From an uncultured delta proteobacterium (GTDB lineage: Bacteria; Myxococcota_A; Polyangia; Polyangiales; Polyangiaceae), in NCBI GenBank assembly GCA_963782055.1, contig CAWAIF010000003.1:5440001-5504000 (forward strand): a stretch of DNA of 64,000 nucleotides, read 5' to 3'. A model generated the notes under the pieces. It saw only the letters and a list, made by a program, of their open reading frames with translations. It searched no databases and had not been told where the DNA came from. Below are positions 2,132 to 50,824 of the stretch, piece by piece. The position numbers and the translations under genes were made by a program. Position 1 is the stretch's first letter. Each line of letters begins with the position of its first letter.

Positions 2132-5076
2132 CGCAACAGGCCCTCCGCGTAGCGCTTGATGGCGTCCTTCTGCTTGGCCGACGAGGCGCGGCCCAGCCCG
2201 TCGATCACGCGGCGGCGGAAGTCCTCCGGGCCCTTGTGCTGATCGGGGTTGGGGATGTCGGCGTGACCGCCGGCGGTGTCGTGTCCGTCGTCGGCGTCGT
2301 CCTGGCCGCTCTGCTGGCCCTCGTCCTGCCCGAGCGCCTGCTTGGCCAGCTCCAGCTTGTGCTGCGCGTCGCGCTGCCGGGCGAGACCCTCGTCCGCGTC
2401 GCCGCGCTGCAGCGCCTGCGCCGCCTCGCGCTGCGCCTCCTCCGCGCTCTCCAGCGCGTCCACGGCCGGCTCCGGGAGCGAGCCCTTGTCGCGCGCCTTG
2501 TCCGCGAGCTTGTGCGTGCGCTCGGCGAGCTCCGCCTCGCCCTGGCCGTCCTTCTGCAGATCGCCGGCGGCGCGCTCCGACGCGCGCTTGCGCATCTGCG
2601 CGAGCTGCTGCTCCGCCCACGCCACCTCTGGCTCCAGCTTGCGCTTGGCGTCGTCCAGGCGCTTCTGCGAGCCGTCGTCCGTCTCGTCGAAGGACTCCCA
2701 GCGCTGGCGCGCGGCGATGCGCTTCGCCTCGTCGAGGGCCTGCAGGGCGTCCCGCCCGCTCTGCACCGCGTTGGCGGCGTTGCCCTGCTCGAGCGATCGC
2801 GCCATCTGCTCGGCGTGCTCGCGCGCCGCGGCGCCCTTGCTCGTCCACGAGTCGCTGCCCGCGCCGACCGTCGGCATGCCGGCGGTGGCCTCGCGCACCG
2901 CCTTCGCGTGGGACTTCGCCTCGTCGCGGAAGTGCTGCACGTCCTCGGCGCTGGACGCCTGGCTGAGCGCCTGCTCCACCTTGCCCATCTGGCCGGCGTG
3001 GTCCTGCGTGAGCTGCTCCAGGTCCTGCGCGGCCTCGTTGAAGGCGCGCTCGGCCTCGCTGCTCTCGCCATCGTCGCCCTGCATCGGCGTGCCGCGGCCG
3101 CCGCCGGACTCCCCGCCCGCCCTGCCGCGCCCGCCCTTGGCGCCGAAGGAGGCCTCAGGCTTGTGCAGGCGCGCGGCGAGGTCGCGCGAGGCCAGCTCCG
3201 CGTGGGGGAAGTCGGCGGCGGCGCGGCCGCGCTGCACGCGCAGCAGGGCGGCGGTGATGGCGCCGCCGAGGTCGCGGCCGAGGGAGCCGAGCTGGTGGAG
3301 TTGTTTGGAGCCCCCCTGCAGCACCAGGACCGCCGCATCGACGCGCTGCATGCCGCGCGCTGTCTCGTCGCCGCCGCGCTGGATCTGCGAGAAGCCGAGG
3401 GCGAGATCGTCGGCCACGTCGGCGAGCTGGCGGCCGGCCTCGCGCGCGTCGCGCAGGGCGGTGCCGCGCAGGATGCCGTCGATCACCAGCACCATCGTCT
3501 CGGTCGCCTTGCGCAGGGCGGCGTGCGAGGCGCCGCTCGGCGCGCGCAGCTCCGCCTCCAGCCGGCCCTCCAGCTTGTGCTCCTGGCCGCGCAGCAGGGC
3601 GGCGAGGCGCGCCGGCACGTGGATGCCGCCGTAGGCATCGGCGAGGGTGTGGTCGAGCTGCTCGGAGGCGTCGTCCCCGCCGCGCTTCTCCTCGTCCAGG
3701 AACTTCTTGCGGTCGGCGGCGGCGGGCGGGACGCCGTGGGCGATGCGCCAGGCGAGCACGTCCACGTAGGTGTCGCGCAGCGCGCGCAGCGCGGCCATGC
3801 GCAGCGCCTGCGACTCGCCGACGTCGGGCGGGATGAGGGTGATGGCGGGGCTCGCGCCCCACTTGGGGCCGGTGATGGGGTCGTTGTCCTTGGCCTCCAC
3901 GCGCACCTCGATGGGGGCGTGGCTGCGGCGCAGAAAGCTGTCGGTCGCGCGGAGCATGGATCCGCCGCGGTCGACGCGCGTCTCGCCGTCCAGGCGGGCG
4001 AGCACGCGCCGCACCTCGCGCGTGCCGCAGCGCAGGACCAGGTGCACCTCCCGCAGGCCGTGATCGTCGTGCGCCTCGTACTTGATGGGGATGTCGGCGC
4101 CCGCGTTCTCCGCCAGGACGATGCGCTTCGGCGCGCCCTCCAGGGTGACCACCGGCGCCTCGTCGGGGATGGAGTTGACGAGGGTGTGGTCGGCGTCCTC
4201 GATCACGACGTCGCCGAAGCGCGCCACCACGCGCAGCTCGGCCGAGCCCTGCAGCGGCCAGCGGGCGACGACGCGGCCGGCGCCGTCATCGACGAAGGGC
4301 ACCTCGCTCTTGCCATCGGACAGGGCGATGCGGCGCCCGGCGTGCGCCGGCGTGCCACGAAAGGTGATGAGCGTGCCACGGTGCAGCCGCAGCGGGTGGT
4401 AGGGCAGGTAGCTCGTCGGCTCCAGGTGGAGGTAGTCCGGCGGGCGCGCGGACAGGTCCATCCCGTCCACCCAGCGCATGCCGACGGGCGCCACGCCGTG
4501 GCGGGCGAAGAGCACGTCGGCGCCCTCGATCACGCCCCACGCGTGGCTGCCGCCGACGAGCAGCGTAAGCACGACGAGCACCAGCGTCGCGATGTTGGTG
4601 TTGCGCGCGAGGTGGTCGGCGCCGGCGGCGATGCGGTCCTGCGGCAGGGCGCCGAGCTGCCGCGCGACGTGCAGCCGCGCGAGGACGACCGAGGCGCCGT
4701 CGTCGACGGCGTTGCCCTCGTCGTCGAGCAGGTCCAGGGCGCGCAGGGCGCGGGCCGCTCCCTCCGGCTCGACGCGGCCGAGCAGGCGCTGGATGATGGC
4801 GCGCGGGTCCGCCCAGATGCGACGCTCCCGCCAGGTGAGGGCGGCGAGCGCGAGGACCGCCCCGCCGAGGACCGCCCCTCCGCCCACGCGCGCGCGGAGG
4901 GTGCCCTGCCGGGCGAGGAGCATCGCCACGACGAAGAGGAAGGCGAAGCCAGCCAGCACGACGCGGCGGCGCGGGCCGCGCATCGTCTCGCGCCACACCA
5001 GGACGAGGTGGTCGAGCGCCTCGCCGATGAAGCGCTTGGTGCTCGGCTTCTTCCTCTTGCGCGGGCGCCTCACCAC
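2128..5076 (-). CDS. DUF4175-like membrane-anchored coiled-coil protein
   Basis: 982 aa ORF with N-terminal TM helices, an Ig-like middle (PDEAPVVTL, YEAHDDHGL, VEAKDND) and a long Q/E/A-rich helical C-terminus ending RYAEGLLR. Confidence 0.65.
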   Translation of the reverse strand: MVRRPRKRKKPSTKRFIGEALDHLVLVWRETMRGPRRRVVLAGFAFLFVVAMLLARQGTLRARVGGGAVLGGAVLALAALTWRERRIWADPRAIIQRLLGRVEPEGAARALRALDLLDDEGNAVDDGASVVLARLHVARQLGALPQDRIAAGADHLARNTNIATLVLVVLTLLVGGSHAWGVIEGADVLFARHGVAPVGMRWVDGMDLSARPPDYLHLEPTSYLPYHPLRLHRGTLITFRGTPAHAGRRIALSDGKSEVPFVDDGAGRVVARWPLQGSAELRVVARFGDVVIEDADHTLVNSIPDEAPVVTLEGAPKRIVLAENAGADIPIKYEAHDDHGLREVHLVLRCGTREVRRVLARLDGETRVDRGGSMLRATDSFLRRSHAPIEVRVEAKDNDPITGPKWGASPAITLIPPDVGESQALRMAALRALRDTYVDVLAWRIAHGVPPAAADRKKFLDEEKRGGDDASEQLDHTLADAYGGIHVPARLAALLRGQEHKLEGRLEAELRAPSGASHAALRKATETMVLVIDGILRGTALRDAREAGRQLADVADDLALGFSQIQRGGDETARGMQRVDAAVLVLQGGSKQLHQLGSLGRDLGGAITAALLRVQRGRAAADFPHAELASRDLAARLHKPEASFGAKGGRGRAGGESGGGRGTPMQGDDGESSEAERAFNEAAQDLEQLTQDHAGQMGKVEQALSQASSAEDVQHFRDEAKSHAKAVREATAGMPTVGAGSDSWTSKGAAAREHAEQMARSLEQGNAANAVQSGRDALQALDEAKRIAARQRWESFDETDDGSQKRLDDAKRKLEPEVAWAEQQLAQMRKRASERAAGDLQKDGQGEAELAERTHKLADKARDKGSLPEPAVDALESAEEAQREAAQALQRGDADEGLARQRDAQHKLELAKQALGQDEGQQSGQDDADDGHDTAGGHADIPNPDQHKGPEDFRRRVIDGLGRASSAKQKDAIKRYAEGLLR

Positions 5077-38289: not shown

Positions 38290-38991
38290 CTACGGCAGGT
38301 AGCAGACGGTGGCGACGAGCTGCGTGGCGTCCAGGCTCCCGCCGGCGCCGCCCCAGCCGACGACGAAATCCACGGTGTCCCCCACGTCCACCGGCTCCGT
38401 GAGGCCGAAGGCCGCGTCGCCGCCGGAGGCGTCGCCCAGGTTGATCTCACCGTCGAAGAGCGAGCCGGCGCCGTGGAGGACGTGCACGTCCACGGTCGTC
38501 GGCGGCTTGATGGAGAGGCCGACGAAGCGCCCGCCGAGCGCGATGGTCCGCTTGACGGGTGAGGTCCACCGTACGACGGCGGACTCCCCTTCGAGCCCCG
38601 GCATCAGGACGACCGCGCCCGCCGGCACGTCGGCCGTCTGGAACCAGGTCACGGTCTGCGAGGTCGGGTTGAAGCCCACCGCCGGCTGCGCCCCGCCCGT
38701 CAGGGAGGTCACCCACAGGTCGGCCGGACCGAAGGCCTGCTCGTTCGGGAGCGGGCTGAAGATCCCGGGCTCGAACTCGTAGCCGTAGCTCCACGGGCCC
38801 GTCGGGTTGTCGGTGAGGGAGAAGTCGACGGCGACGTCGTCGCAGTGCGGCGTCGGGCCGGCCTCGGGCACGCCGGCGTCGAAGAGGAAGGAGGCGTCGG
38901 GCACGGCGGGCTGCGGCCGCGGAGGCAGGTCGATGCGGGTGCACGCCGCGACCGCGGGCGACACCAGGACGAGGAAGACGAGCCGGCGCAC
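38290..38991 (-). CDS. Hypothetical lipoprotein with beta-sandwich domain
   Basis: GTG 38991, lipobox VAAC, DAG linker, DFS..NP.GPWSYG, VVRWTSP, GDTVDFVVG. Confidence 0.65.
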   Translation of the reverse strand: MRRLVFLVLVSPAVAACTRIDLPPRPQPAVPDASFLFDAGVPEAGPTPHCDDVAVDFSLTDNPTGPWSYGYEFEPGIFSPLPNEQAFGPADLWVTSLTGGAQPAVGFNPTSQTVTWFQTADVPAGAVVLMPGLEGESAVVRWTSPVKRTIALGGRFVGLSIKPPTTVDVHVLHGAGSLFDGEINLGDASGGDAAFGLTEPVDVGDTVDFVVGWGGAGGSLDATQLVATVCYLP

Positions 38992-39016
38992 GATGGGCTC
39001 ATCATAGCGCTCTTTG

Positions 39017-39100
39017 CGGAAGGAAGAGGACTCGCACCCCACGCGGAGACCGCGCGCGCTGTTTTCGAGACAGGCCCGACGCTTGGTCGGTTTTCCTTCC
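39017..39100 (-). tRNA. Non-canonical tRNA-Ser(CGA)-like gene
   Basis: GGAAGGA AAA CCGAC-CAAGC-GTCGG GC CTGT CT-CGA-AA ACAG CGCG CGCGG-TCT-CCGCG T GGGG TGCGAGT CCTC T TCCTTCC G. Perfect 7-bp acceptor, G73, long variable arm; atypical A8, 5-bp D-stem, T-loop TGCGAGT, one terminal mismatch in each of the anticodon and T stems. Confidence 0.75.
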
Positions 39101-39102
39101 AG

Positions 39103-39128
39103 TCTCGCGCCGGATGCCCGGCGCGAGA
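39103..39128 (-). other. Perfect 11-bp hairpin between the HNH stop and the tRNA-Ser-like gene
   Basis: Plus strand TCTCGCGCCGG-ATGC-CCGGCGCGAGA. No U-tract follows on the minus strand; it ends 2 nt before the tRNA 5' end. Confidence 0.7.
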
Positions 39129-39139
39129 TCCCGCCTTGT

Positions 39140-39643
39140 TCACGCGCAGAACACCTGCCACGGGGCGGGGACGGTGGCGGGGTCGACCTGCAGCGCCGTC
39201 GTCGCCGGCAGCCACGAGGGCTTCACCGGCTTGGAGAGCAGGCGCATGTGCGCCTCCTCCGGCGTGCGGCCGCCCTTCCTGTCGTTGCAGGCGCGGCACG
39301 CGGTCACGATGTTCGTCCAGTCCGTCGGGCCTCCGCGGGCGCGGGGCACGACGTGGTCGTAGGTGAGCTCGCGCATCGCCCGGCGGGCGCCGCAGTACTG
39401 GCAGCGGAAGGCGTCGCGGGTGAAGACGTTCAGCCGCGAGAAGCGGACCGTCCGCCGCACCGGCACGTGGCCGCGCGTCAGCCGCACCACCGCGGGCGCC
39501 CGCACCGCGAGCGCCTGCGAGCGGATGATCTCGTCGTACTCGGCGACGACCTCGACCTTGCCGAGGAAGCTGAGCACGATCGCGCGCTGCCAGGGGATGA
39601 CCCTGTGCGGCGCCATCGCCGGCGTGAGCATGAGTGTCCGCAT
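39140..39643 (-). CDS. HNH endonuclease (McrA/HNH_5-like, zinc-binding)
   Basis: ATG 39643, 167 aa: FSRLNVFTRDAFRCQYCG, LTYDHVVPRARGG, WTNIVTACRACNDRKGGRTPEEA. Confidence 0.93.
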   Translation of the reverse strand: MRTLMLTPAMAPHRVIPWQRAIVLSFLGKVEVVAEYDEIIRSQALAVRAPAVVRLTRGHVPVRRTVRFSRLNVFTRDAFRCQYCGARRAMRELTYDHVVPRARGGPTDWTNIVTACRACNDRKGGRTPEEAHMRLLSKPVKPSWLPATTALQVDPATVPAPWQVFCA

Positions 39644-39734
39644 GACCGTTACCTTCGTCTCTTCCTCTTCACGAGGCTGCTGACGCGCGGCGCGGCTCGA
39701 GCCGGACGATGCCACCCGTCCGGGGTGGCGTCGG

Positions 39735-39806
39735 CGCCTCCGCCAAGAGTCGAACTTGGCCACCGAGCTTCGGAGGCTCGAGCCTGGATTCCGCCAGGAC
39801 GGAGGC
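39735..39806 (-). tRNA. Non-canonical tRNA-Arg(CCG)-like gene
   Basis: GCCTCCG T CCTGG-CGGAAT-CCAGG CT CGAGC CT-CCG-AA GCTCG GTGG CCAAG TTCGACT CTTGG CGGAGGC G. All four stems pair perfectly; atypical 5-bp D-stem with 6-nt loop; CCA not encoded. Confidence 0.85.
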
Positions 39807-39868
39807 CTGCGTCCACGGGTCCACGCGCCCTTCGGGTCGTGGGCCGGCCTTCGGCCGGACCTCGTGTG

Positions 39869-39896
39869 GACGCCATCGGCGACGCCGTCCTGACGC
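39869..39896 (-). promoter_or_regulatory. Putative ECF-sigma-type promoter/regulatory motif (copy 1) upstream of the tRNA-Arg/HNH/tRNA-Ser unit
   Basis: Minus strand GCGTCAGGACG-G-CGT-C-GCC-GATGG-CGTC, i.e. CGTCAGG-N16-CGTC; same motif and spacing as 47900-47927. Confidence 0.55.
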
Positions 39897-39947
39897 CGGT
39901 GTTGCCTGCGAGAGACGCGAGGCGTGGGCTGCCGGTAGAGTGATCCC

Positions 39948-41117
39948 ATGCGGTTGGTGCGAAGGGGCCTCGTCGCGACCGGCGTTCTGGTCGCCGCTGG
40001 CGCGGCGGCGTGCTCGGTGCTCACGCCGCTGGACGACCTCACGCAGGGCTACGACGCTGGCGCCGACTCGCCCGCGGCGCCGCGCTGCGAGGGCGGCCTC
40101 GCCGCGTGCAACGGCGCGTGCGTCGACCTGTCCTCTGACGGCCGCAACTGCGGGCGCTGCGGCCACGACTGCGTCGGTGGAGGGTGCTCGGCGTCGGCGT
40201 GCCTGCCCCTGACAATCGCCACCGGCCAGCACTCGCCCTTCGGCATCGCGGTGGACGCGACGCGCGTGTACTGGGCGAACAACGACTACAAGGCCTCCTT
40301 CGCGAGCTGTCCCATCACGGGGTGCGCGGACGGCGGAGTCACCACGCTCCTCGACAACCAGGATCTCCCGGCCGACGTCTTCGTATCTGGCGGCAAGCTC
40401 TACATGACCGACTACGGTGTCAGCGGCGACGCGGGCGGACCGGGGCTGGTGCTCTCCTGCGATCCCACCAACTGCGCGGCCACGCTGGCCACGATCACCT
40501 CCACGACGCCCGACAACCCCGTGGCCGTCGTGGCGGACAAGAGCTCGGTGTTCTGGACCAACGCCAAGGACGGGACCATCGGCACGTGCAGCGCGATCGG
40601 GTGCGTCTCGCCCGGCACCTTCGCGAAGGACAAGGGCGGTGGGCCGTGGTACGGCCTCGCGATCGCGGGCAACGGCGTGTACTGGACGAGCGACGTGCCC
40701 GACGCCGGCGCGGTGAACCGCTGCGACGTCGGCGGGTGCGCCGCGCCGACGCTCGTCTCGAGCAGCCCCGGCCGCCCGTTCGACCTCGCCGTCTTCGGGG
40801 ACTCGGTCTACTGGACCACCGGCGCCGGCGGCCAGGTCCTTCGCTGTCCGCTCGCCGGCTGCAGCACGCCCCAGATCTTCGCCGACAACCAGGCGGCGCC
40901 GGCGGGCATCGCCGCCGACGCCTCCGGCGTCTACTGGTTGAACCAGGCTTCCGGCACCGTGCTGCGCTGCGACCTGCAGGGCTGCGGCGCGAACGGGCCG
41001 GCGGTGCTCGCGGGCGGTCAGGGCGCGCCATGGGAGATCGTGCTCGACGCCACCAGCCTCTACTGGGGAGACTCCGCGAGCGCGGACGGGCGCGTCATGC
41101 GCCTCGCGAAGCCGTGA
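39948..41117 (+). CDS. Lipoprotein with myxobacterial Cys-rich module and YWTD-like beta-propeller
   Basis: Lipobox AAAC; CNGACVDLSSDGRNCGRCGHDC; about seven repeats of P..IA.D...VYW(T/A). Confidence 0.85.
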   Translation: MRLVRRGLVATGVLVAAGAAACSVLTPLDDLTQGYDAGADSPAAPRCEGGLAACNGACVDLSSDGRNCGRCGHDCVGGGCSASACLPLTIATGQHSPFGIAVDATRVYWANNDYKASFASCPITGCADGGVTTLLDNQDLPADVFVSGGKLYMTDYGVSGDAGGPGLVLSCDPTNCAATLATITSTTPDNPVAVVADKSSVFWTNAKDGTIGTCSAIGCVSPGTFAKDKGGGPWYGLAIAGNGVYWTSDVPDAGAVNRCDVGGCAAPTLVSSSPGRPFDLAVFGDSVYWTTGAGGQVLRCPLAGCSTPQIFADNQAAPAGIAADASGVYWLNQASGTVLRCDLQGCGANGPAVLAGGQGAPWEIVLDATSLYWGDSASADGRVMRLAKP

Positions 41118-41163
41118 CCGGCCACGATTGACCCGCCCGCCCGCGGGGTCCGATAGTCAGAGG

Positions 41164-42450
41164 ATGCGCCGACTGCTGCTCTTCCTCGTCCCGATCACCC
41201 TCGTCGCGGGCTGCAAGAAGCACCCGCCGCCTGTGGCCACGCACGACCCGGCAGCCCCGGCGTCAGCGCGCTCGTCGTCGGCCGCGTCCGCGTCGGCGGC
41301 GAAGCCGAAGCCGGCGGCGCCGCGCCCCGTTCCCTCGCAGACGTGCACGCTCGACCCGCCACGAGGCGTTGTGGTCACGGCTTCCGGTCACGGCGGCTAC
41401 GACCACGACATCGCCGCGTCGAAGGCCGGGGTGGTCGTCGGGTGGCTCGAGTCGGTGCCCTCGAAGGACATCCCCGACTACTCCGCGCGCGTCGAGATGG
41501 TGCGCGCGTTCGACGCGTCGCTCGTCCCGGCGGGTCCGCCCGACGAGATCGCGCACGACGATCCGAGCGGCGGCTTCATCACCGCGGTCGCGCCCTGGGC
41601 GAACGACGGCACGCTCGGGACGGGGACGTGTCAGTTTGCCGCGGAGGCGAGCGACCTCGAGTGCAGCGTGGACCGGCTGAAGGGCAAGACGCTGGGCGCC
41701 TTCGAGGTCAAGCCCTTCGACACGCCGCCGGGGGATCACGTCGCGGTCGCGGCGGTGGGCGCGAAGGCCGTGCTCCTCCACAGCTACTGCAGCATCGTGG
41801 AGTCCTTCGCGACCAGCGAGGACGCGTCGCACGAGCTCAGGGGCGGCAGCGAGGACGATCACTACTGCGAGGGCAACGCCGGGGTCGACGTCCTCGCGGT
41901 CACGGCCACCACGGGGGGCCACGCCTTCGGCGCCTGGCGGCGCAAGGGGGTCATCGAGGGTCGGGAGATCGCCCCGGACGGCAAGCCGTCGGGGAAGGTC
42001 GTCAGGCTCAGCGCGCCGGGCCGGATGGTGGGGGCGCCAACGGTCCGCTGGGACGGCACGCAGGCGATCGCCGCGTACGCGTCGCGGGCGAAGGCGAGCG
42101 ACCCGTGGAAGATCACCTTCGCGAAGTGGAAGCCCGGCGCGACGGTGGTGCGCGCGGCGGTCGACACCGGCGCCGAGCCGGCGATGGCCCCCGCGCTCGC
42201 CGCCACCTCCGACCCGGCGTGCGTGCTGATGTCGTGGACGGAGGGCCGCGGCCACGGCACGCGCGGCCATGCCGCCCACGTCTGCGCCGACGCCCTGGTC
42301 CAGGCGAGCAAGGTCGACGTCTCCGGCGCGGGCATGGAGGCGGGTGACACCGAGCTGGCGGCCGCGCCCAACGGGGCGTACGTGGTCTGGCAGGAGGTGC
42401 CGGCGAAGGGCCCCGCGGACCTGCGCGTCGCGCGGCTGCGCTGCAGGTAG
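41164..42450 (+). CDS. Hypothetical lipoprotein
   Basis: MRRLLLFLVPITLVAGC lipobox, Pro/Ala/Ser linker, beta-rich repeats ending in V.W.E. Confidence 0.7.
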   Translation: MRRLLLFLVPITLVAGCKKHPPPVATHDPAAPASARSSSAASASAAKPKPAAPRPVPSQTCTLDPPRGVVVTASGHGGYDHDIAASKAGVVVGWLESVPSKDIPDYSARVEMVRAFDASLVPAGPPDEIAHDDPSGGFITAVAPWANDGTLGTGTCQFAAEASDLECSVDRLKGKTLGAFEVKPFDTPPGDHVAVAAVGAKAVLLHSYCSIVESFATSEDASHELRGGSEDDHYCEGNAGVDVLAVTATTGGHAFGAWRRKGVIEGREIAPDGKPSGKVVRLSAPGRMVGAPTVRWDGTQAIAAYASRAKASDPWKITFAKWKPGATVVRAAVDTGAEPAMAPALAATSDPACVLMSWTEGRGHGTRGHAAHVCADALVQASKVDVSGAGMEAGDTELAAAPNGAYVVWQEVPAKGPADLRVARLRCR

Positions 42451-42545
42451 TACACCGGCCACCTCGACCGGGACCTGTCAATGATTCCGACACCTTCGCG
42501 ACGCGCCGGGGCCTAGCCGCATCGAAGGCCGTGTGATACCTTCGT

Positions 42546-42574
42546 TCGCAAAGTGAATCTTCGTTCACCTGCGA
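42546..42574. promoter_or_regulatory. Palindromic operator-like site upstream of the emrA-like gene
   Basis: TCGCA-AA-GTGAA-TCTTCG-TTCAC-C-TGCGA nested inverted repeat about 75 nt before the ATG. Confidence 0.4.
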
Positions 42575-42646
42575 TCTTCGCGGCGCCGCGCACCGTCCGA
42601 GCGCCCGCCTGACGGCACGAGCGAGGGGTCCCAAGGAGACCACTGC

Positions 42647-43883
42647 ATGACGACCGCGAACTCAGAGACGCTCCCGGCCCACACCGCGGAGAAGGGGGAG
42701 GCCCCCGCCGCTCCAGCGAAGAAGCGGAGCACGCGGCCGTACATCATCCTCGGCACCATCATCGCGGTGGGCCTCGTCGGCTACGGCATCTTCTCCGCGG
42801 CCACGCGAGGCCATCAGTCGACCGACGACGCGCAGGTGGACGCCAACGTGGTGCCCGTCTCCGCCCGCGTGGGCGGCCAGGTCTTCAAGGTACTCGTCGG
42901 CGACAACGAGCCGGTCAAGAAGGACCAGCCCATCGTCCAGATCGACAAGTCGGACTACCAGAATCCGGCTCAAGCAGGCCCAGGCCGAGCAGGCCGCGGC
43001 CGAGGCCCAGGCGGCGGCCGCCGACGCGCAGGTGCTCATCGTCGCGGCCACCTCCAAAGGCGGGCTGTCGGCGGCGAAGGCGCTGGTCAGCGGCTCGGCC
43101 ACTTCGGTCAGCTCGGCGGCCGCACAGATCGCGTCGGCCCGGGCGTCGCTCGCCCGCGCGCAGGCGGAGGACTCCCGCGCCCAGACGGATCTCGCCCGCG
43201 CCCAGTCGCTCCGCAAGGACGACGCCATCCCGCAGGCGCAGCTCGACACCGCGCGCGCCAACGCCGCGGCGTCCAGCGCCGCCGTCGCGCAGGCGCAGGC
43301 GCAGCTCTCCGCAGCGGAGGAGTCGAAGAGCGCCGCCCAGACGCGCGTGACCGAGGCGAAGGGTCGCCTGGAGCAGAGCACGCCGGTGGACGCCCAGCTC
43401 GCCGCCGCCAAGGCCAACGCCGACCTCGCCCACGCCCGCGCGGACGCCGCCAAGCAGGCGGTGGAGCTCGCCAAGCAGCAGCTCTCGTACACCACGATCG
43501 TCGCCCCGGCCGATGGCGTCCTCTCCAAGCTCGCGGTGCGCGAGGGCCAGCTCGTGCAGCCCGGCAGCCAGATCGTGAGCGTGGTGCCCTCCGCCACCTA
43601 CGTCGTCGCCAACTTCAAGGAGACGCAGGTCGGGCAGATGCAGAAGGGCCAGCACGCAGAGATCGAGGTGGACGCCTACCCCGGCCGCAAGTTCGAGGGC
43701 GTGGTGGAGTCCACGTCCCCCGGCACCGGCGCCCGCTTCTCGCTCATGCCGCCGGACAACGCGTCAGGCAACTTCGTCAAGGTCGTGCAGCGCGTCCCGG
43801 TGAAGATCGCCTGGTCGAACCTGCCGCCGGACGTGCACATGGCGGCGGGTCTGTCGGCGGACGTGACCGTCCTCACTCGCTAA
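42647..43883 (+). pseudogene. EmrA/HlyD-family membrane fusion protein with a one-base frameshift (assembly error or pseudogene)
   Basis: N-half STDDAQVDANVVPVSARVGGQV (ORF 42647) and C-half VVANFKETQV...PPDNASGNFVKVVQRVPVKI (ORF 43032) join if one A at 42962-42963 is removed (CAG A ATC CGG CTC AAG). Confidence 0.85.
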
Positions 43884-43896
43884 CCCCAAGGTGCTC

Positions 43897-45444
43897 ATGA
43901 AAGGTCCCCATCGGCTCGGCGGTCGTGCGCTCGGCGCCGCCGCGATGCTGCTCTCGCTCGCCGCGGCCCCGGCCGCGCTCGCACAGGCTCCGGCGACCGG
44001 TGCGCCCCGTCCCGACACGGGCGCCGGGACGCCCTCGCCGGCCGGCACCGGTAGCGCGACGCCGCCGCCGGCCGACACCGGTAGCGCGACGCCGCCGCCG
44101 GCCGACACCGGTAGCGCGACGCCGCCGCCGGCCGACACCGGTAGCGCGACGCCGCCGCCGGCCGACACCGGTAGCGCGACGCCGCCGCCGGCCGCGCCTC
44201 CACCCGCGGCCGGTCCGGTCCTCGCCTTGAGCGACTGCGTCTCGTACGCGCTCGCGCACAACCCCGACGTGCTCACCAGCGACAAGCAGGTGGACGAGGC
44301 GCGCGCGTCCCGCGCGGAGACCGCGGGCCACTTCGGGCCGAAGGTCCAGCTCGACGGCAACCTGCAGATCTGGGACGGCCCCTTCCAGATCAACTTCGGC
44401 GGCGGGTCGATCCAGGTGCGCGACCAGTTCACCTGGACCGCATCCGCTTCGCTGATCCAGCCGCTGACGCCGCTCTTCGTGATCTACGACGAGTACAAGC
44501 TGCGCGACTACGGCGTGGACGTGGCGCAGATCCAGAAGAACGCCACGCGCCGCGACGTGGCGTTTCGCGTGGCCGAGGCGTACCTGCGGCTGCTGGAGGC
44601 CACCCGCCTCTCCAGCGTGGCGACCACCTCGGTGGACGAGCTCATGGGACAGCAGCGCCAGGCGGAGTCCCTGCACCAGAACGGCGTCATCGGCAAGAAC
44701 GACCTCCTGCGCGCGGTGCTCGCCGTCGCCAACGCGCGTCAGCTCGTGATCCAGTCGCGCGGCATGGTCACCCTCGCGCAGGGGCGGCTGGAGATGCTGA
44801 TGGGGCGGCGTCACGACGCGCCGTTCGAACCGGTGCCCTACACCAACGCGCCACCTCCGCTCGAGCCGTCGACGGTCGCCGACGCCGAGACGCAGGCCGC
44901 GACGAAGCGGATGGAGCTGGTCTCGCTGGACCGGCGGATCGACCAGGCGGGCATGGCCCTCTCCGTCGCCAAGCTGAAGCTCCTGCCGCAGGTGAACGCC
45001 ATGGGCACCTACCAGCACTTCGACGGCTCCGCGTTCCAGCAGCACGACGCCGCGTTCGTCGGGCTCACGGGCACGTGGGACATCTGGGACTGGGGCACCA
45101 CCTGGAACGGCATCAAGGAGGCGCGCGCGCGGAAGGACCAGGCGCAGCTCGCGCGGACCAAGCTGGAGGACGAGGTCCGCCTGGAGGCGCGCCAGGCGTT
45201 CGTCAACGCGAACACGGCGAGGGACGCGCTGGCGGTGGCCAAGACCGCCGTGACCCAGGCGGAGGAGAACTACCGCATCGTGACCAAGCGGTTCCAGGCC
45301 GCCGCCGGCACCTCCTTCGACGTCGTCGACGCCGAGACGCTCCTGACCCGTGCCCGCGCCCAGGTGGAGACGGCGACGTACGACTACCTCATCGCCCGCT
45401 CTGCCCTGCAGCGGGCGACCGGGGCGACGACGCCGCGCCTCTGA
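43897..45444 (+). CDS. TolC-family outer-membrane efflux protein
   Basis: Signal peptide, repeat linker, LSDCVSYALAHNPDV, VAEAYLRLL, LLPQVN, WDIWDWG, AEENYRIVTKRF..GTSFDVVDAE. Confidence 0.9.
   Translation: MKGPHRLGGRALGAAAMLLSLAAAPAALAQAPATGAPRPDTGAGTPSPAGTGSATPPPADTGSATPPPADTGSATPPPADTGSATPPPADTGSATPPPAAPPPAAGPVLALSDCVSYALAHNPDVLTSDKQVDEARASRAETAGHFGPKVQLDGNLQIWDGPFQINFGGGSIQVRDQFTWTASASLIQPLTPLFVIYDEYKLRDYGVDVAQIQKNATRRDVAFRVAEAYLRLLEATRLSSVATTSVDELMGQQRQAESLHQNGVIGKNDLLRAVLAVANARQLVIQSRGMVTLAQGRLEMLMGRRHDAPFEPVPYTNAPPPLEPSTVADAETQAATKRMELVSLDRRIDQAGMALSVAKLKLLPQVNAMGTYQHFDGSAFQQHDAAFVGLTGTWDIWDWGTTWNGIKEARARKDQAQLARTKLEDEVRLEARQAFVNANTARDALAVAKTAVTQAEENYRIVTKRFQAAAGTSFDVVDAETLLTRARAQVETATYDYLIARSALQRATGATTPRL
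44041..44190 (+). repeat. 30-bp tandem repeat, five copies, in frame within tolC
   Basis: GCCGACACCGGTAGCGCGACGCCGCCGCCG x5 (first copy has one mismatch), encoding ADTGSATPPP. Confidence 0.95.
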
Positions 45445-45452
45445 GCCGCGTT

Positions 45453-45540
45453 CCCCCCCCTGTCCGCCCCTGTCCGCCGTCCCCTGTCCCGCCTGTCCGC
45501 CCTGTCCCGCCTGTCCCGCCTGTCCCCCCTCCCTGTCCCC
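45453..45540. repeat. Degenerate CCTGTCC tandem array (8 copies, mostly 9-10 nt period)
   Basis: TGTCC starts at 45461, 45471, 45485, 45494, 45503, 45512, 45521 and 45534 in a C-rich, A-free tract. Confidence 0.85.
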
Positions 45541-45640
45541 GGACACCCAACGTCGAAGTGCGAGGGTACTTGCAGTGCGACGTTTCCCCTGAAATCTGCA
45601 GGGAGGGGGGGGTGGCATGGGGGGTGCTCTGGGGGTGTGG

Positions 45641-46207
45641 ATGGACCCTGTGTTCTTCACGATCAAGCGGGCCTATTACGCGACGCTGAAGCTGACGCGG
45701 CGGGCGCTGGCGGCGCTCGGGCTGACGTCCGCGCGCTACGATCTGCTCGACGCGCTGTACCGACTGGGCACGCGCACCAGTCCCTTCCAGAGCGACCTGC
45801 GGCGGGCGCTCGGGGTCGCGCGGTCCACCATCAGCGTGATGATGCGAGCGCTCGAGCGGATCGGGCTGGTGAGACGGCGGCGTAGCGGGCGGGACATGCT
45901 CGTCGAGCTCACGCCGGAGGGGCGGCGGTGCGTACGGAGGGCGTTCTTCGGGCTGGTGCTGGTGGGGCACGTCAGCGCGGCACTGGACGGGGCGCTCGCG
46001 CCCGGGGGGCGTCGGTGGCCGGCCGCCCGCGCGTGCGCGCGGGCGCGCCGACACCTCGAGGTGCTCTGCCTGCGCATTCGCGACGGATTCGGCGACGACG
46101 CCGAGCTGGACCGCCTCGGCAGCGCCTGGTGGTGCCGCGAGCAGGACCGGCTGCTCCGGCTGCGCCTGCGCCGCGAGCGGCGCCAGGGGAGCCTGGACGG
46201 CCCGTGA
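45641..46207 (+). CDS. MarR-family winged-helix regulator
   Basis: LGLTSARYDLL, QSDLRRALGVARSTISVMMRALERIGLVRR, VELTPEGR. Confidence 0.8.
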   Translation: MDPVFFTIKRAYYATLKLTRRALAALGLTSARYDLLDALYRLGTRTSPFQSDLRRALGVARSTISVMMRALERIGLVRRRRSGRDMLVELTPEGRRCVRRAFFGLVLVGHVSAALDGALAPGGRRWPAARACARARRHLEVLCLRIRDGFGDDAELDRLGSAWWCREQDRLLRLRLRRERRQGSLDGP

Positions 46208-46327
46208 CGTAACCACCTGCGTGACGCCGCGCCGCTCCACTTCGGCGCGTCGACGACGGTCGCGAGCCGGGGCTGGTCTGCCGAGCCCGAGGACCTTACC
46301 GTCGAGACTTCGACCGGAGGTGTCCCG

Positions 46328-47761
46328 ATGCTCAAGCCGCGCTACCCCTACTACCTCGCCAACCACGCGCTGGAGCCCAACGCCGACCTGGTCGTGCACG
46401 ACAAGTACACCGGCGAGGTGGCCACGCGCGTCGCGCTCGCCGACGCTCCGGTGATCGAGGCGTCGATCGCCGCCGCCGCGCGCGCGGCGAAGGCGATGCG
46501 CGAGCTGCGTCCCTACGACCGGCAGAGGGTCCTCGAGCACTGCGTGGCGCGCTTCCGCGAGCGCGCCGACGAGCTGGCGCTCGCCCTGTGCATCGAGGCG
46601 GGCAAGCCCATCCGCGACGCGCGCGGCGAGGTGGCTCGCCTGGTGGATACCTTCAAGGTCGCCGCCGAGGAAGCGGTGCGCATCGACGGCCAGGTGCTCA
46701 ACCTGGAGATCTCCCCGCGGGCGAAGGGCTTCCGCGGCTTCACGAAGCGCGTGCCGCTCGGGCCGTGCTCCTTCATCACGCCCTTCAACTTCCCCCTCAA
46801 CCTGGTGGCGCACAAGGTCGCGCCGGCGATCGCCGCGGGCTGCCCGTTCGTGCTCAAGCCTTCCGAGCGCACACCCGTCGGCGCGCTCATCGTCGGCGAG
46901 GTCCTCGCCGAGACCGACCTGCCGGAGGGCGCCTTCTCGGTGCTGCCCGCGCTCGTGCACGACGTGGGGCCCTTCGTGGAAGACGACCGGCTTAAGCTGC
47001 TCTCCTTCACCGGCTCGGGCAAGGTGGGCTGGGACCTGAAGGCGCGCGCCGGCCGCAAGAAGGTGGTGCTGGAGCTCGGCGGCAACGCTGCGTGCGTCGT
47101 CGACGCCGACCAGAAGGACCGGCTGGACTTCGTCGTCGAGCGCATCGTCTTCGGCGGCTACTACCAGTCGGGGCAAAGCTGCATCTCGGTGCAGCGCGTC
47201 CTCGTGCACGAGAGCCTTTACGACGCCGTGCGCGAGCGCCTGGTGGCCAAGGTGTCCGGCCTGGTCGCCGGTAACCCGCGCGACGAGACCACCTTCCTCG
47301 GCCCGATGATCGACGAGGCGGCGGCGGCGCGACTGGAGGGCTGGATCGAGAGCGCGCGGGCGCGCGGCGCGAAGGTGCTCTGCGGGGGCGGGCGCACGCG
47401 CGCCACGATCCAGGCCGCGGTGCTGGAGAACGTCCCGCGCGACGAGCCGCTTTGGGCGCAAGAGGCCTTCGGCCCGGTCACGGTCCTCGAGCGCTTCTCC
47501 GACTACGAGGACGCGCTGGTCACGGTGAACGACAGCCGGTACGGCCTGCAGGCGGGCGTGTTCACCGACAGCCTCTCGCACGCGACGCGCGCCTGGGACG
47601 AGCTCGAGGTGGGCGGCGTCGTGGTGGGCGACGTGCCGAGCTTCCGCGTCGACAACATGCCCTACGGCGGCGTGAAGGGCTCCGGCCTCGGGCGCGAGGG
47701 CATCCGCTGGGCGATCGAGGACATGACCGAGCCCCGGCTGCTGGTCATCCGCGATCGGTGA
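46328..47761 (+). CDS. Aldehyde dehydrogenase family protein
   Basis: ITPFNFPLNL, LKPSE, FTGSGKVG, LELGGNA, GQSCISVQR, EAFGPV, PYGGVKGSGLGREG; RBS GGAGG. Confidence 0.96.
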   Translation: MLKPRYPYYLANHALEPNADLVVHDKYTGEVATRVALADAPVIEASIAAAARAAKAMRELRPYDRQRVLEHCVARFRERADELALALCIEAGKPIRDARGEVARLVDTFKVAAEEAVRIDGQVLNLEISPRAKGFRGFTKRVPLGPCSFITPFNFPLNLVAHKVAPAIAAGCPFVLKPSERTPVGALIVGEVLAETDLPEGAFSVLPALVHDVGPFVEDDRLKLLSFTGSGKVGWDLKARAGRKKVVLELGGNAACVVDADQKDRLDFVVERIVFGGYYQSGQSCISVQRVLVHESLYDAVRERLVAKVSGLVAGNPRDETTFLGPMIDEAAAARLEGWIESARARGAKVLCGGGRTRATIQAAVLENVPRDEPLWAQEAFGPVTVLERFSDYEDALVTVNDSRYGLQAGVFTDSLSHATRAWDELEVGGVVVGDVPSFRVDNMPYGGVKGSGLGREGIRWAIEDMTEPRLLVIRDR

Positions 47762-47899
47762 GCGCCTCGCGCGGTGGACGGTCAGCGCCACGCGGCAGGA
47801 TCGCGCGGCGGGACCTCTCCGGCGGCGTGTCGAGGGACGCAAGAAGGAGCGCCGCGAGGCGAAGGACCATGAGGTGCGGACGCGACGCCGTCGCGGAGC

Positions 47900-47927
47900 G
47901 CGTCAGGACGCCGTGGCCCCGCTCGTC
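47900..47927 (+). promoter_or_regulatory. Putative ECF-sigma-type promoter/regulatory motif (copy 2) upstream of the tRNA-Cys-like gene
   Basis: GCGTCAGGACG-C-CGT-G-GCC-CCGCT-CGTC (CGTCAGG-N16-CGTC), ending 10 nt before the tRNA-like 5' end. Confidence 0.55.
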
Positions 47928-47937
47928 TCCAGCCGAC

Positions 47938-48009
47938 GAGCCGGTTCTCTGACGAGGAGCGCGGTCTGCAACACCGTGCGCGAGGGTCTGATTCCCTCCC
48001 GGCTCTCCA
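47938..48009 (+). tRNA. Non-canonical tRNA-Cys(GCA)-like gene with encoded CCA
   Basis: GAGCCGG TTCTC-TGAC-GAGGA GC GCGGT CT-GCA-AC ACCGT GCGC GAGGG TCTGATT CCCTC CCGGCTC T CCA. Perfect acceptor and T stems, U73 (Cys identity); minimal D-arm and T-loop TCTGATT. Confidence 0.8.
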
Positions 48010-48011
48010 CC

Positions 48012-48044
48012 GGCGAGCGCCGCTGCGGCGCCGCCGCGCTCGCC
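48012..48044. terminator. GC hairpin between the tRNA-Cys-like gene and the convergent LuxR gene
   Basis: GGCGAGCGC...GCGCTCGCC 9-bp inverted repeat; no U-tract. Confidence 0.4.
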
Positions 48045-49082
48045 TCACCTCCAGAACGCGGCCACCACCGCGGCGCGCGACTCGACCTTCGCCTTGCCGA
48101 GGATGGCGCTGACGTGCAGTTCCACCGTCCCCACCGCGCAGCCGAGCTTCTCGGCGATGACCTTGTTGGCGTCCCCCAGCACCAGACACCCGAGCACCTG
48201 CGTCTGCCGCGGCGTCAGCCGCCACGCCCGCGCCATCCGCCGCAGCAGCGCGTCGTCCACGCCCTGCGCGCCGCTGTGGAACACCACCAGGCGGTGGGTG
48301 GGTACACCCCGGGCCGCCACGCGGAGCACCGTGGCGCGCGGGTCCTTCCCGGCGGCGACGGCGGCGATGCGGTCGCGCACCCGGCGGCCGTCGGCGACGA
48401 GCAGCTCGCGCCCGGCGCGGCTGGCGAGCACCGGCCGAGAGCGGCCGTCCACCAGGAACGCCGCCGCCCCGAGCAGGTCCAGCGCCGCCGCGAGCCCCAC
48501 CTCGTGGAGGCGGGCGTGCGCGAGCGACTCCTCCAGGCGCAGCCGCTCGACCAGGACCGGCACCACCGCGCGCAGCACGTCCCGCTCGCGCACGCCGAAG
48601 CGCTCCGGGCGGAAGGCGCCGAGCCACGCGAGCAGGCGCGGGCCGTCGCAGAGCAGCACGCGGATCTGGTCCATCCCCCCCACGCCGATGCGCGGGAAGA
48701 TCTCCTCGTAGAGGCGCGCCGTGGTCGGCGTGATGCCCCCCGCCTGGATCTCCGGCAGCCGGAGCACCCGGTTGCGCTGGGCGCGCTCCGGGCGGAGCGG
48801 GTCGTAGGAGCCGCTGGCGCTCGGCGACCGGCGCAGGAATGCCCAGTACGGGCGCAGCCCCTTGCGGAAGGGCGAGGGAAACGTCGTCAGGTACCGGTAC
48901 TCCCAGCCGGTGGCGTCGGCGGCGGGGGCGAGCCGGTGCGCCACGGCGTAGGTACTCCTCAGCAAAGTGCCGAGTTGGGGAACTACCCAGTCGAGGACGC
49001 GGTTCCCCGCCGGCTCGGCGCGGACGCGCGCGCGGAGCTCGCGGAGCGCACGGCGCTCATCGGCAGTCGAAGCGCTGGACAC
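48045..49082 (-). CDS. LuxR-type C-terminal HTH regulator with GAF/PAS-like N-terminus
   Basis: LTPRQTQVLGCLVLGDANKVIAEKLGCAVGTVELHVSAILGK. Confidence 0.85.
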   Translation of the reverse strand: MSSASTADERRALRELRARVRAEPAGNRVLDWVVPQLGTLLRSTYAVAHRLAPAADATGWEYRYLTTFPSPFRKGLRPYWAFLRRSPSASGSYDPLRPERAQRNRVLRLPEIQAGGITPTTARLYEEIFPRIGVGGMDQIRVLLCDGPRLLAWLGAFRPERFGVRERDVLRAVVPVLVERLRLEESLAHARLHEVGLAAALDLLGAAAFLVDGRSRPVLASRAGRELLVADGRRVRDRIAAVAAGKDPRATVLRVAARGVPTHRLVVFHSGAQGVDDALLRRMARAWRLTPRQTQVLGCLVLGDANKVIAEKLGCAVGTVELHVSAILGKAKVESRAAVVAAFWR

Positions 49083-49153
49083 ACCCCAGCAGTATCAGCA
49101 CGACGCGCGCGCGGGAAGACTGCACGCGACGCGCGTCGCCGGTCGATCATGCC

Positions 49154-50824
49154 TCAGCCGTGACGGCTGGCCCCGCACCCTCTTGCCGCGCGACGCCGGA
49201 TCAGGGCCGCGCCGACGGCGGCGGTGGCGAGAAGGAGCGCGCCTCCGCCCCGCCCGGGCATGCCCGCGGTGACGCAGCCGCAGCCGCCCGAGCCCTCCCC
49301 TCCTCCGCCCGCGCCGCCGTCGTCGGTCAGGCCCGCCTCGTCGCCCGGCGTGAGCCCGCCGTCGGCGCCCACGCCCCCGTCACCACCGCCGCCCGGCTCC
49401 ACCCCTGGCGGCGGGAGGGCGGCGGGGTCCTGCAGGATGACCGCGCTCCGCGCGGGGACGCTGAGCGAGCCCGCGGGCACGTCCTTGGTGTAGGTCAGCG
49501 CGTACGCCGGCATGGTGCCGGCGGCGTCGACCGCCCCGCCGCCGGTCCACTCCGCCTGCTTCATCGCCCTGGGCACCGTGGCGGTGAGCGCGGCGCCGGA
49601 CGAGTTGACCAGCACCATCCCCGCGACGTAGTCGCGCTCGTACAGGCCGCCCTGCGCGCCGCCCTTGCCGGCGACGAGGAGCTGCTCCACGTCCGCCGGC
49701 GGCTCGGCGACGTACCCGCCGAGGTCGATCTCGTACTCCGGATACCAGGTGATGTCGGAGTTGCCGAACATGATGTAGCTCGTGCCGTTGCGCACCAGGA
49801 GGTAGGTGCCGATGAGCAGCTCACGCTCCGCCATGGTCAGGTCGGTGCCGGCCTTGGTGACGTCGGCGATCCACGTCTTGGCGTTGCCGGTGACGTAGCG
49901 GCTTATCCGCCGGACTGACGTGTACCAGTCGCCCGCGTTGGCCGTCACCGCCTGCCAGTTCTCGGTGAACGCGCCGTCGGTGCCGTCCAGGAAGGCCGGC
50001 TCCTCGTCGATGAGGGAGTCCGGGTTGGGGATGACGAGGTAGCGCCCGTGCGTCTTCGTCGGGGCGAAGGCCTTGCGCAGGTCGTCGAAGTACTGCGTGG
50101 CGCGCGGGTTCCACCACGCGGCGAGCGCCCCGTGCGAGGAGCCGCCGGCGAGCGGCGACCACCAGCCGCTCGGCTGATAGCCGTACCAGGGGTGGAAGGC
50201 GACATCGAAGAAGAAGCCGGTGGACTCGGTGGTGGCGAAGGTCTTCGCCCACGTGGTCATGGTGTCCGCCATGTACTGCTTCCACTCCGCCGACGTGATG
50301 TCCATCAGCCAGTACGGGTCCGGGTAGAAGATGCGGTCGCTCGTGAAGCCGGTGCTCGTGCCGTGCTGGTAGGCGTTCTCGCGCGTGAGGGAGTGCGCGG
50401 TGACGTATGGCGAGAAGACGTCGGTGTCCTCCTGGCCGTACGTGTCCGGCCCCACGATGTTGCCCACCGGGTTCTGCTGGTCCGCGCCGTTGAGCCCGTA
50501 GGCCAGGTGATAGACGAGCACCAGGAAGTCCGGGTTCATCTGCCGGTACTCGTCGATCTGCTTCTTGAAGACCTTCTGCGTCCCCACGTAGTGCGTGACG
50601 ATGAACTGCTTCTGCGCCTGCGAGATGGACTGCACGGCGTCGGCGAGCTGGTCCTTCCACACCAGCACGTAGCGCCTCGTGGAGGGCAGCGGGTGGGTGA
50701 GGCCGCTCGGCTGCAGCACGGCCGGCGTGAGGGGGTAGGTCACGCCCTTGGGGTGGGAGTCGGCGAGCGCCGGTGGCGCCACCCCCAGCACCAGCGAGAA
50801 GACGGCGAGATGGCTCAACCTCAT
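49154..50824 (-). CDS. Secreted putative glycoside hydrolase (GHL15-like) with MYXO-CTERM sorting signal
   Basis: Signal peptide; NPDFLVLVY, WLMDITS.EW, GFFFDV, DGAFTENW, YERDY..GMVLVNSS; C-terminal GCGC-linker-hydrophobic-RRR tail. Confidence 0.65.
   Translation of the reverse strand: MRLSHLAVFSLVLGVAPPALADSHPKGVTYPLTPAVLQPSGLTHPLPSTRRYVLVWKDQLADAVQSISQAQKQFIVTHYVGTQKVFKKQIDEYRQMNPDFLVLVYHLAYGLNGADQQNPVGNIVGPDTYGQEDTDVFSPYVTAHSLTRENAYQHGTSTGFTSDRIFYPDPYWLMDITSAEWKQYMADTMTTWAKTFATTESTGFFFDVAFHPWYGYQPSGWWSPLAGGSSHGALAAWWNPRATQYFDDLRKAFAPTKTHGRYLVIPNPDSLIDEEPAFLDGTDGAFTENWQAVTANAGDWYTSVRRISRYVTGNAKTWIADVTKAGTDLTMAERELLIGTYLLVRNGTSYIMFGNSDITWYPEYEIDLGGYVAEPPADVEQLLVAGKGGAQGGLYERDYVAGMVLVNSSGAALTATVPRAMKQAEWTGGGAVDAAGTMPAYALTYTKDVPAGSLSVPARSAVILQDPAALPPPGVEPGGGGDGGVGADGGLTPGDEAGLTDDGGAGGGGEGSGGCGCVTAGMPGRGGGALLLATAAVGAALIRRRAARGCGASRHG

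Follow-up and report, generated by a model that had tools for sequence, protein, structure and literature searches.

A compact tRNA-Cys with a covarying elbow pair, apparently stranded from a tRNA array of the Polyangiaceae

The two kinds of system that most resemble the gene described here are already known, namely, the L-arrays of supernumerary tRNAs and a compact tRNA scaffold that occurs in mitochondria, in the Pyl system and in the products of laboratory selection. The trn operon of Anabaena PCC 7120 is reported to be induced when translation is impaired, with 23 of its 26 tRNAs charged in vivo and with HNH and rtcB genes co-induced (PMC8421152). The compact scaffold is described for tRNA-Pyl and mammalian mt-tRNA-Ser(UCN) (PMC7609411). 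According to the structural work on human mt-tRNA-Ser(UGA), a missing linker base shifts the D-stem, the elbow formed with the short D-loop stays canonical, and charging, which is lost on breaking G19:C56, is regained with an engineered A19:U56 pair (PMC10412605). Selected ZtRNAs that combine the same scaffold with a GG/UUCRA elbow are reported to function in E. coli translation (PMC6337575). Other non-canonical tRNAs, including the 8/4 selC* tRNA-Cys, were described by Mukai et al. (PMC5389517). A natural bacterial tRNA-Cys with the compact fold, or natural covariation of A19-U56, was not found in the literature covered by our search, outside which most subscription journals lie.

Such a gene is present in the window, that is, the whole 64,000-nt stretch analyzed here, from a member of the Polyangiaceae. 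We consider it probable that this is an intact compact tRNA-Cys from the Polyangiaceae L-arrays, stranded by the break-up of its array, the product of which would be charged by CysRS and serve as a spare under stress.

The gene and its compact fold

The gene (47938..48009, +) comprises 72 nt including the encoded CCA, as delineated by ARAGORN, the fold, our own covariance model and a homologue match confined to the tRNA. An earlier, sequence-only reading had recognized a 72-nt tRNA-Cys(GCA) cloverleaf between aldehyde dehydrogenase and LuxR genes, and both statements agree with our data: ARAGORN makes the same call at 47938-48009(+), the upstream aldehyde dehydrogenase gene ends at 47761, and the convergent LuxR-type gene ends at 48045. 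The 145-nt span assigned by that reading does contain the gene, which itself takes up only 72 nt. All the features listed there are present, including the GAGCCGG/CCGGCTC acceptor stem, the GAGGG/CCCTC T-stem, the TGAC and TCTGATT loops, U73 and the encoded CCA; to these, we add a 6-bp anticodon stem, a 1-nt acceptor/D linker and a 3-nt variable region.

The 5' strand of the acceptor stem (47938..47944, +) pairs with 47999-48005, followed by U73 (48006) and CCA (48007-48009). The segment with the D-arm and its two linkers (47945..47959, +) consists of one base at 47945, a 4-bp D-stem (47946-49/47954-57) enclosing the 4-nt D-loop TGAC, in which G18 is 47951 and A19 is 47952, and two nucleotides at 47958-59. 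The anticodon arm and variable region (47960..47981, +) include a 6-bp stem (47960-65/47973-78), the GCA anticodon (47968-47970) and three variable nucleotides (47979-81), and the T-arm (47982..47998, +) has a 5-bp stem and the loop TCTGATT, with U54, C55 (47988), U56 (47989), G57 and A58. The minimum-energy fold of 47938-48009 is the cloverleaf (z -2.67; 2 of 200 shuffles equally stable). ARAGORN draws the D-arm with a 3-bp stem and the loop GACGA, in which A19 is the same base as in the 4-bp TCTC/GAGG register that the homologues prefer (99% of cells paired).

The features of canonical class I tRNAs (G18G19, TΨC, 2-nt linker, 7-11-nt D-loop, 5-bp anticodon stem, Rfam score) are missing from this gene, which instead has the type I mt-tRNA-Ser(UCN)/ZtRNA scaffold, in the sense of fold and not of descent. 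The GG/UUCRA elbow sequence is replaced with GA/UCUGA, the pairing being retained as A19-U56. A strict architecture scan of both strands of the 7.58-Mb genome returned a single match, the window tRNA-Cys, which is also the sole exception among 50 filtered ARAGORN calls, the other 49 of which combine a D-loop GG with TTC. A canonical tRNA-Cys is encoded separately (C3:5807615-5807687) and scores 43 bits with our covariance model, compared to 95.7 bits for the window gene. Rfam RF00005 leaves the latter unmatched even at E <= 1 and is blind to compact tRNA-Cys in all 8 family-bearing loci tested; Rfam-type searches therefore miss these genes, and array inventories are probably incomplete. Identity as a DUF3800-VI RNA was rejected (21.1 bits, below the cut-off of 35; E 0.67). 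Elsewhere in the genome, a tRNA-like sequence at C3:6242435-6242514 (-), called '?(Cys|Leu)' by ARAGORN, has canonical D- and T-arms and an enlarged anticodon loop.

The family of the window gene comprises 98 distinct sequences, pooled from all loci and mostly located in Polyangiaceae tRNA arrays, that passed a filter on architecture in which the D- and T-loop letters were left free. In a search at the DNA level, 28 of 382 other Polyangiaceae genomes gave matches and the 6 congeners none; 2 of the 29 non-self matches (L047 and L050) are not tRNAs and were dropped. A pattern scan of genomes yielded 34 loci, mostly from Polyangiaceae, including Minicystis rosea DSM 24000 and Chondromyces apiculatus DSM 436 (both of the G19-C56 type), along with one Planctomycetota and two other Myxococcota metagenome-assembled genomes (MAGs). 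Further pattern scans identified 77 metagenome loci and 2 viral contigs with compact tRNA-Cys; an earlier, narrower pattern had given no matches on viral contigs, and blastn detected none in cultured phages and plasmids. The covariance model found nothing above 52 bits, that is, ordinary tRNAs only, in 150 other genomes of the phylum. Because the family was gathered by similarity and with patterns in which several positions are fixed, it under-represents decayed copies; one sequence, L137, does have a disrupted T-stem. Two relatives from outside the Polyangiaceae (L077 3988-4059 and L061 2402-2473, the latter adjoining selA) have a 5-bp D-stem and a CGG triloop.

The homologues establish the conservation of the fold, which consists of a 7-bp acceptor stem, 1-nt linker, 4-bp D-stem, 3-5-nt D-loop, 2-nt linker, 6-bp anticodon stem, 3-nt variable region and 5-bp T-stem. 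Across 26 distinct sequences, 98.6% of 624 cells are paired, with double changes in 12 of the 24 pairs, compared to 45-55% of cells in slid controls. Pairing reaches 100% in the acceptor stem (double changes in 3 of 7 pairs), 99% in the D-stem (one double change) and 96.8% in the anticodon stem (double changes in 5 of 6 pairs). The D-loop is 4 nt long in 72 of the 98 family members, 3 nt in 23 and 5 nt in 3, and the variable region is 3 nt long in 96; these counts come from a set that was pre-filtered on architecture, and the independent test is the covariation in the 26 sequences. Array tRNAs for Arg(CCG) and Arg(ACG) are often compact as well, with a 5-6-nt D-loop, 2-nt linker, 3-nt variable region and 6-bp anticodon stem, the last called in 19 of 33 and 18 of 22 array genes, respectively.

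Pairing at the elbow

The sequence-only reading had proposed that A19 and U56 form a compensatory pair, maintained by selection on the fold, and that the two positions should covary among relatives, random unpaired substitutions being the contrary outcome. Of the 98 distinct sequences, 62 have G-C at 19:56 and 34 have A-U, with one A-C and one G-U, so that 96 carry one of the two pairs and only 2 are mismatched. Among the distinct metagenome and viral matches, which were retrieved with a pattern that let A or G at 19 and C or T at 56 vary independently in all four combinations, the check holds equally, with 60 of 61 being G-C or A-U; the 2x2 table leaves out 5 of the 61 (acceptor pairing < 6; all G-C; some of them parsing offsets). 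A Fisher p for that table takes no account of relatedness and is not relied on here. Six more sequences were reached via Arg(CCG), five with G-C and one with A-U, the A-U copy having a broken T-stem. As this covariation shows, 19:56 evidently requires a Watson-Crick pair of either kind, G-C and A-U alternating among relatives. The replacement of a near-universal G-C pair with a matching A-U pair in a third of the relatives, in stems that covary themselves, points to a working structure under selection and not to decay, and provides natural bacterial evidence that the elbow is needed as a pair, not as a sequence. General drift does not account for U56 because C56 is present in all 726 tabulated non-Cys array tRNAs, a control that rests on ARAGORN calls, in which tRNAs without C56 may be missed.

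Two trees bear on the number of exchanges. In the array tree, built from 22 other array tRNA families in 35 of 45 loci (those with fewer than six other tRNA families and the near-duplicate L074 being left out), G-C is basal, A-U arises once, and there are at most three returns to G-C. The Cys-gene tree is based on 69 columns, without L052 and L087-L089. By parsimony, positions 19 and 56 each changed 4-5 times, whichever tree is used. The array tree rejects a monophyletic A-U group (AU test p 0.0001), whereas a single A-U origin is not rejected on the Cys-gene tree (AU test p 0.108); given that a single origin fits the latter, the covariation could stem from a single event or from a few. From these phylogenies, the number of independent 19:56 swaps is estimated at between one and about four.

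The neighboring position 55 behaves differently: C55 does not covary, being found with G18 in 18 of the 98 sequences, some of them G-C and others A-U at 19:56. A second elbow swap, in which A18 accompanies G55, is seen in 4 of the 98 compact Cys genes. Among non-Cys array tRNAs, G55 is found in 60 of 62 without a D-loop GG and U55 in 629 of 664 with GG. Array tRNAs for Gly, Met, His, Val(GAC), Leu(CAA) and Thr(GGU) show A18-G19 together with G55, and Ala array genes frequently combine GG with G55. The combination of C55 and U56 is not peculiar to the window gene, the same loop being present in the arrayed relatives L162/L186 and L212. The C55 of the window gene removes the target consensus of TruB, given as GUUYRANYC (PMC7912444).

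The tRNA arrays and the isolated copy

For 65 of the distinct sequences, 1 kb of flanking DNA was available on both sides, and 61 of these have at least two co-oriented tRNAs within that distance. The arrays reach 34 tRNA calls per 8 kb and cover most amino acids, and genes for HNH, TROVE/Ro60, RtcB and Band-7 proteins recur in them (91 ORFs scanned in 23 loci). The compact gene fills the Cys slot, which in two arrays, L052 and L226, is taken by a more canonical tRNA-Cys. Three other near-solitary compact copies are found in reduced arrays, two of them adjoining RtcB; the loci having been found via Cys, they allow no claim that Cys is preferentially kept in such arrays. Of the 22 genomes known from Arg(CCG) only, 16 were scored; compact tRNA-Cys is present in 12 of the 22 (0 of 7 in one genus), and the 10 without a match include some on short contigs.

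A conserved AT-rich motif, in which TCAA recurs at a spacing of 13 nt, is located 60-78 nt ahead of the first tRNA at 9 of 15 array starts, before Lys(UUU) in L054, L060, L065, L067, L072, L073, L076, L081 and L085, and is seen also in L059; it is a probable array promoter or regulator site. Three further peculiarities of the arrays deserve a record. A tRNA-like element directly after array Asp(GUC) (L075 ~3780-3870, L069 ~3735-3825, L084 ~1387-1455) could be a Y-RNA-like tRNA mimic; parts of it resemble D- and T-arms, its anticodon arm varies or is lacking, and it has no Rfam match at threshold. The RtcB gene of L075 and L069 is divergent. ARAGORN calls array tRNAs with a CUA anticodon in one locus and UUA in another (L039 ~2170 (-) and L049 ~2680 (-)), possible nonsense suppressors or decayed genes.

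Three array-type features lie 8-9 kb from the window tRNA-Cys. A tRNA-Arg(CCG) called by ARAGORN (39733..39806, -), with a 6-bp anticodon stem and a 3-nt variable region, is 87% identical to the array Arg(CCG) of L066 and has matches in 33 of 382 other Polyangiaceae genomes; like the tRNA-Cys, it falls below the Rfam threshold. An HNH endonuclease gene of array type (39140..39643, -; Pfam HNH_5/HNH) has homologues with 50-69% identity in 29 of the 44 tRNA-bearing loci tested, the best (69%) in L069. Finally, a divergent tRNA-Ser(CGA)-like gene of array type (39018..39100, -), 73% identical to the array Ser(CGA) of L063, is missed by ARAGORN and Rfam; its anticodon arm folds poorly, and it is possibly decaying. 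Ser(CGA) is located behind HNH in L063 and L069, too, in the same position, and the order Arg(CCG)-HNH-Ser(CGA) agrees with that of the reduced array L069 (Cys, Arg(CCG), Leu, HNH, Ser(CGA)). Inverting about 39.9-48.0 kb of the window would put Cys directly before Arg(CCG)-HNH-Ser, the array arrangement; at the candidate breakpoints, only 71% GC-rich inverted arms were found, and the congeners are not syntenic. The Cys, Arg(CCG) and Ser(CGA)-like genes are the only array tRNA remnants found in the genome.

The nearest relative of the window gene resides in an intact array, surrounded by 10 other tRNAs, and has the same TGAC and TCTGATT loops, indicating that the odd elbow was inherited and did not result from decay after isolation. 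The two sequences differ at two positions that make up one compensatory pair, C-G to T-A at 47962/47976 in the anticodon stem, so that the separation may be recent; their flanks share nothing. Gene content and order thus place the origin of the gene in an array, and the window tRNA-Cys is, by this comparison, a relic apparently left alone when the array of its genome broke up. The designation 'orphan' used in the sequence-only reading holds locally, in that there is no other tRNA within 1 kb, but not by origin, the gene being derived from a tRNA array.

Several other sequences were noticed in the same genome: a second, partial array-type HNH homologue (G000 C2:137685-137930; 59% over 82 aa); a HlyD-type membrane-fusion gene at 42647-43900 of the window that appears split over two frames near 43000, by a frameshift or a sequencing error; and partial duplicates of tRNA-Arg(CCG) and tRNA-Lys(UUU) near intact genes (G000 C2:407911-407996 and C3:3428051-3428118), the second about 10 kb from its intact gene, which suggests integration sites. 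When three sets of DNA contigs were aligned with 38400-49200 of the window, only short pieces matched, and these bear neither on expression nor on the assembly.

The strongest alternative, to which we give somewhat less than an even chance, is that the window gene is a silent remnant: other members of the family would function in arrays, and this copy would have lost its promoter too recently to have decayed. This reading is compatible with the structural part of our explanation. The array promoter motif is absent, with a genome maximum of 18.7, compared to 20.9-57.4 for the 9 training sites, and no occurrence in the window; no sigma-70-like promoter is predicted at 47700-48200 either. Only the three remnants remain, the Ser(CGA) one with a poorly folding anticodon arm; TROVE was not found in the 97% complete genome; RtcB lies at a distance of 1.3 Mb and is not accompanied by any array tRNA within 17 kb; the gene is absent from all 6 congeners; and just two differences separate it from the arrayed relative. 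Against silence, none of the 22 stem pairs is disrupted and the two differences together preserve a pair, while the flanks are unlike those of the relative's array. Furthermore, the gene starts 176 nt behind the co-oriented aldehyde dehydrogenase ORF, with no terminator predicted between them, and the three near-solitary copies elsewhere, two of them beside RtcB, provide parallels. Given that the genome lacks the array promoter motif, transcription of the window copy would depend on read-through from the aldehyde dehydrogenase gene, failing which the copy would be silent; its chances of being expressed are about even.

Charging, function and comparison with known systems

Returning to the stranded, CysRS-charged spare as the preferred explanation, U73 and the GCA anticodon are described as the CysRS determinants, with G2-C71 and C3-G70 as minor bacterial ones (PMC9976931). 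Both main determinants are present in the window gene, and U73, which was not part of the scan pattern, is found in all 98 family members. The minor determinants are absent (A2-U71 and G3-C70 in the window gene; A2-U71 in 93 and G3-C70 in 76 of the 98), which counts against easy charging. The genome encodes one CysRS, and there is no second tRNA-synt_2d match. Under the proposed mechanism, the loss of one linker base together with the extra anticodon-stem pair would shift the D-arm towards the T-arm, and the 4-nt D-loop could still meet the T-loop such that the elbow forms, by analogy with human mt-tRNA-Ser(UGA). U73 and GCA would then direct charging by the single housekeeping CysRS, and the charged tRNA would decode UGC and UGU on the ribosome. 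In intact arrays, the spare tRNA would be made under translational stress or tRNA damage, beside RNA-repair genes, as the Anabaena trn operon suggests. A CysRS-charged spare for translational stress is, on this analysis, the most likely function.

A different reading is that the compact core and the altered elbow protect the tRNA from toxins that cleave tRNAs or from enzymes that read the elbow, such that Cys decoding survives the loss of housekeeping tRNA-Cys. The arrays are accompanied by RtcB/Ro60 repair genes and are termed putative antidefence in PMC12803027, phage tRNAs that neutralize defence nucleases have already been published, two viral contigs carry family members, and the second elbow swap recurs (G55 in 60 of 62 without GG, against U55 in 629 of 664 with it). 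However, G19-C56 is retained in 62 of the 98 sequences, and the array tree includes up to three reversions to G-C, in keeping with isosteric pairs being swapped neutrally; there is nothing unusual in the anticodon loop, and no nuclease that reads position 19 or 56 was identified. Evasion appears unlikely. About equally improbable, in our judgment, is a wider reading that combines a bacterial origin of this translation-competent tRNA, independent of mitochondria and the Pyl system, with a core and an A19-U56 elbow that resist a nuclease or modification enzyme directed at normal tRNA-Cys, a benefit that would let the gene persist, expressed on its own, after loss of the array.

Staphylococcal non-proteinogenic tRNA-Gly and Y RNA are models for non-ribosomal donors and tRNA mimics, and loss of GG/TΨC is typical of such RNAs. 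The window tRNA could accordingly be imagined as a non-ribosomal cysteinyl donor, or as a mimic that avoids EF-Tu or binds Ro60, and the loss of GG/TΨC, the Ro60/TROVE genes in several arrays and the failure of RF00005 in 8 of 8 loci tested are in line with this. We regard it as very unlikely: the gene fills the Cys slot of arrays for most amino acids, the same slot that canonical tRNA-Cys fills in L052 and L226, the elbow pair is retained and not lost, no transferase is linked, and no Rfam Y RNA family was matched at the gathering threshold in 9 sources. Non-ribosomal Cys transfer had been suggested in the sequence-only reading, and finds no partner here: there is no candidate transferase among 25 window proteins, no CDPS and no TROVE in the genome, and a single CysRS; a search of the genome for PEARL/lantibiotic dehydratases gave no match, but neither did the control genomes, so that this negative carries no weight. 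Nor do the data favor another of its suggestions, a boost to the synthesis of Cys-rich lipoproteins, given that Cys accounts for 1.2% of codons (a crude ORF-filter count), a canonical tRNA-Cys exists, and the relatives sit in arrays that cover most amino acids. Random decay of a housekeeping tRNA-Cys copy into a pseudogene, for which the solitary position and the RF00005 failure even at E <= 1 might be invoked, has next to no probability, being already contradicted by the covariation, with 98 distinct relatives and compensatory changes in every stem and the elbow, and by the dissimilarity to the canonical gene (43 vs 95.7 bits).

With respect to known systems, the family's arrays share with the L-arrays (the Anabaena trn operon, PMC8421152; the mycobacterial array units, PMC12803027) co-oriented supernumerary tRNAs, embedded HNH genes, RtcB nearby, a patchy distribution and a redundant anticodon; the window copy differs in having lost its array. 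In the Anabaena array itself, ARAGORN detects no tRNA-Cys and the compact model has no match, and the TrcR site TGTAGTAT (PMC10272220) is unlike the array promoter motif found here. Among the rows listed in the supplement of the L-array survey, Minicystis rosea has one GCA tRNA, so the compact gene was probably not counted. In the cultured M. rosea DSM 24000 and C. apiculatus DSM 436, charging, folding and stress induction are directly testable.

The selC* tRNA-Cys (PMC5389517) is likewise a non-canonical second tRNA-Cys with U73 and GCA from deltaproteobacteria-related lineages, but its reported acceptor/T fold is 8/4, its variable arm is long, and selB*/cysS* are linked to it, whereas the window gene has a 7/5 fold, a 3-nt variable region, no second CysRS, and aldehyde dehydrogenase and LuxR genes as neighbors. 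Bacterial Y RNAs are a poor fit, with no Rfam Y RNA at gathering score and no TROVE in the genome. The tRNA-Pyl and the synthetic ZtRNA have the same secondary scaffold, and the GG/UUCRA elbow of ZtRNA is that of the family's G-C majority; the window gene differs from both in its GCA anticodon, in place of CUA, and in U73. In addition, tRNA-Pyl lacks the 19-56 pair, and ZtRNA is laboratory-selected with a 5-nt D-loop. The genome has one PF01409 match, in a 363-aa frame that we read as PheRS alpha by size and score, and hence shows no sign of PylRS.

A further likeness is to mammalian mt-tRNA-Ser(UCN/UGA) (PMC10412605, PMC7609411), which has the same 1-nt acceptor/D linker, small D-loop, extra anticodon-stem pair and 3-nt variable region, and keeps its elbow via 18/19 and 55/56, with A19:U56 reported to be functional there when engineered. 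The tRNA described here is bacterial, has Cys identity, a D-loop of 4 nt instead of 5 and two bases between the D- and anticodon stems, and the family carries A19-U56 naturally, in 34 of the 98 sequences. The resemblance is most likely convergent. The compact tRNA-Cys, the scaffold of which may serve tRNA engineering, is a natural bacterial instance of the fold known from mt-tRNA-Ser(UCN), tRNA-Pyl and the laboratory ZtRNA.
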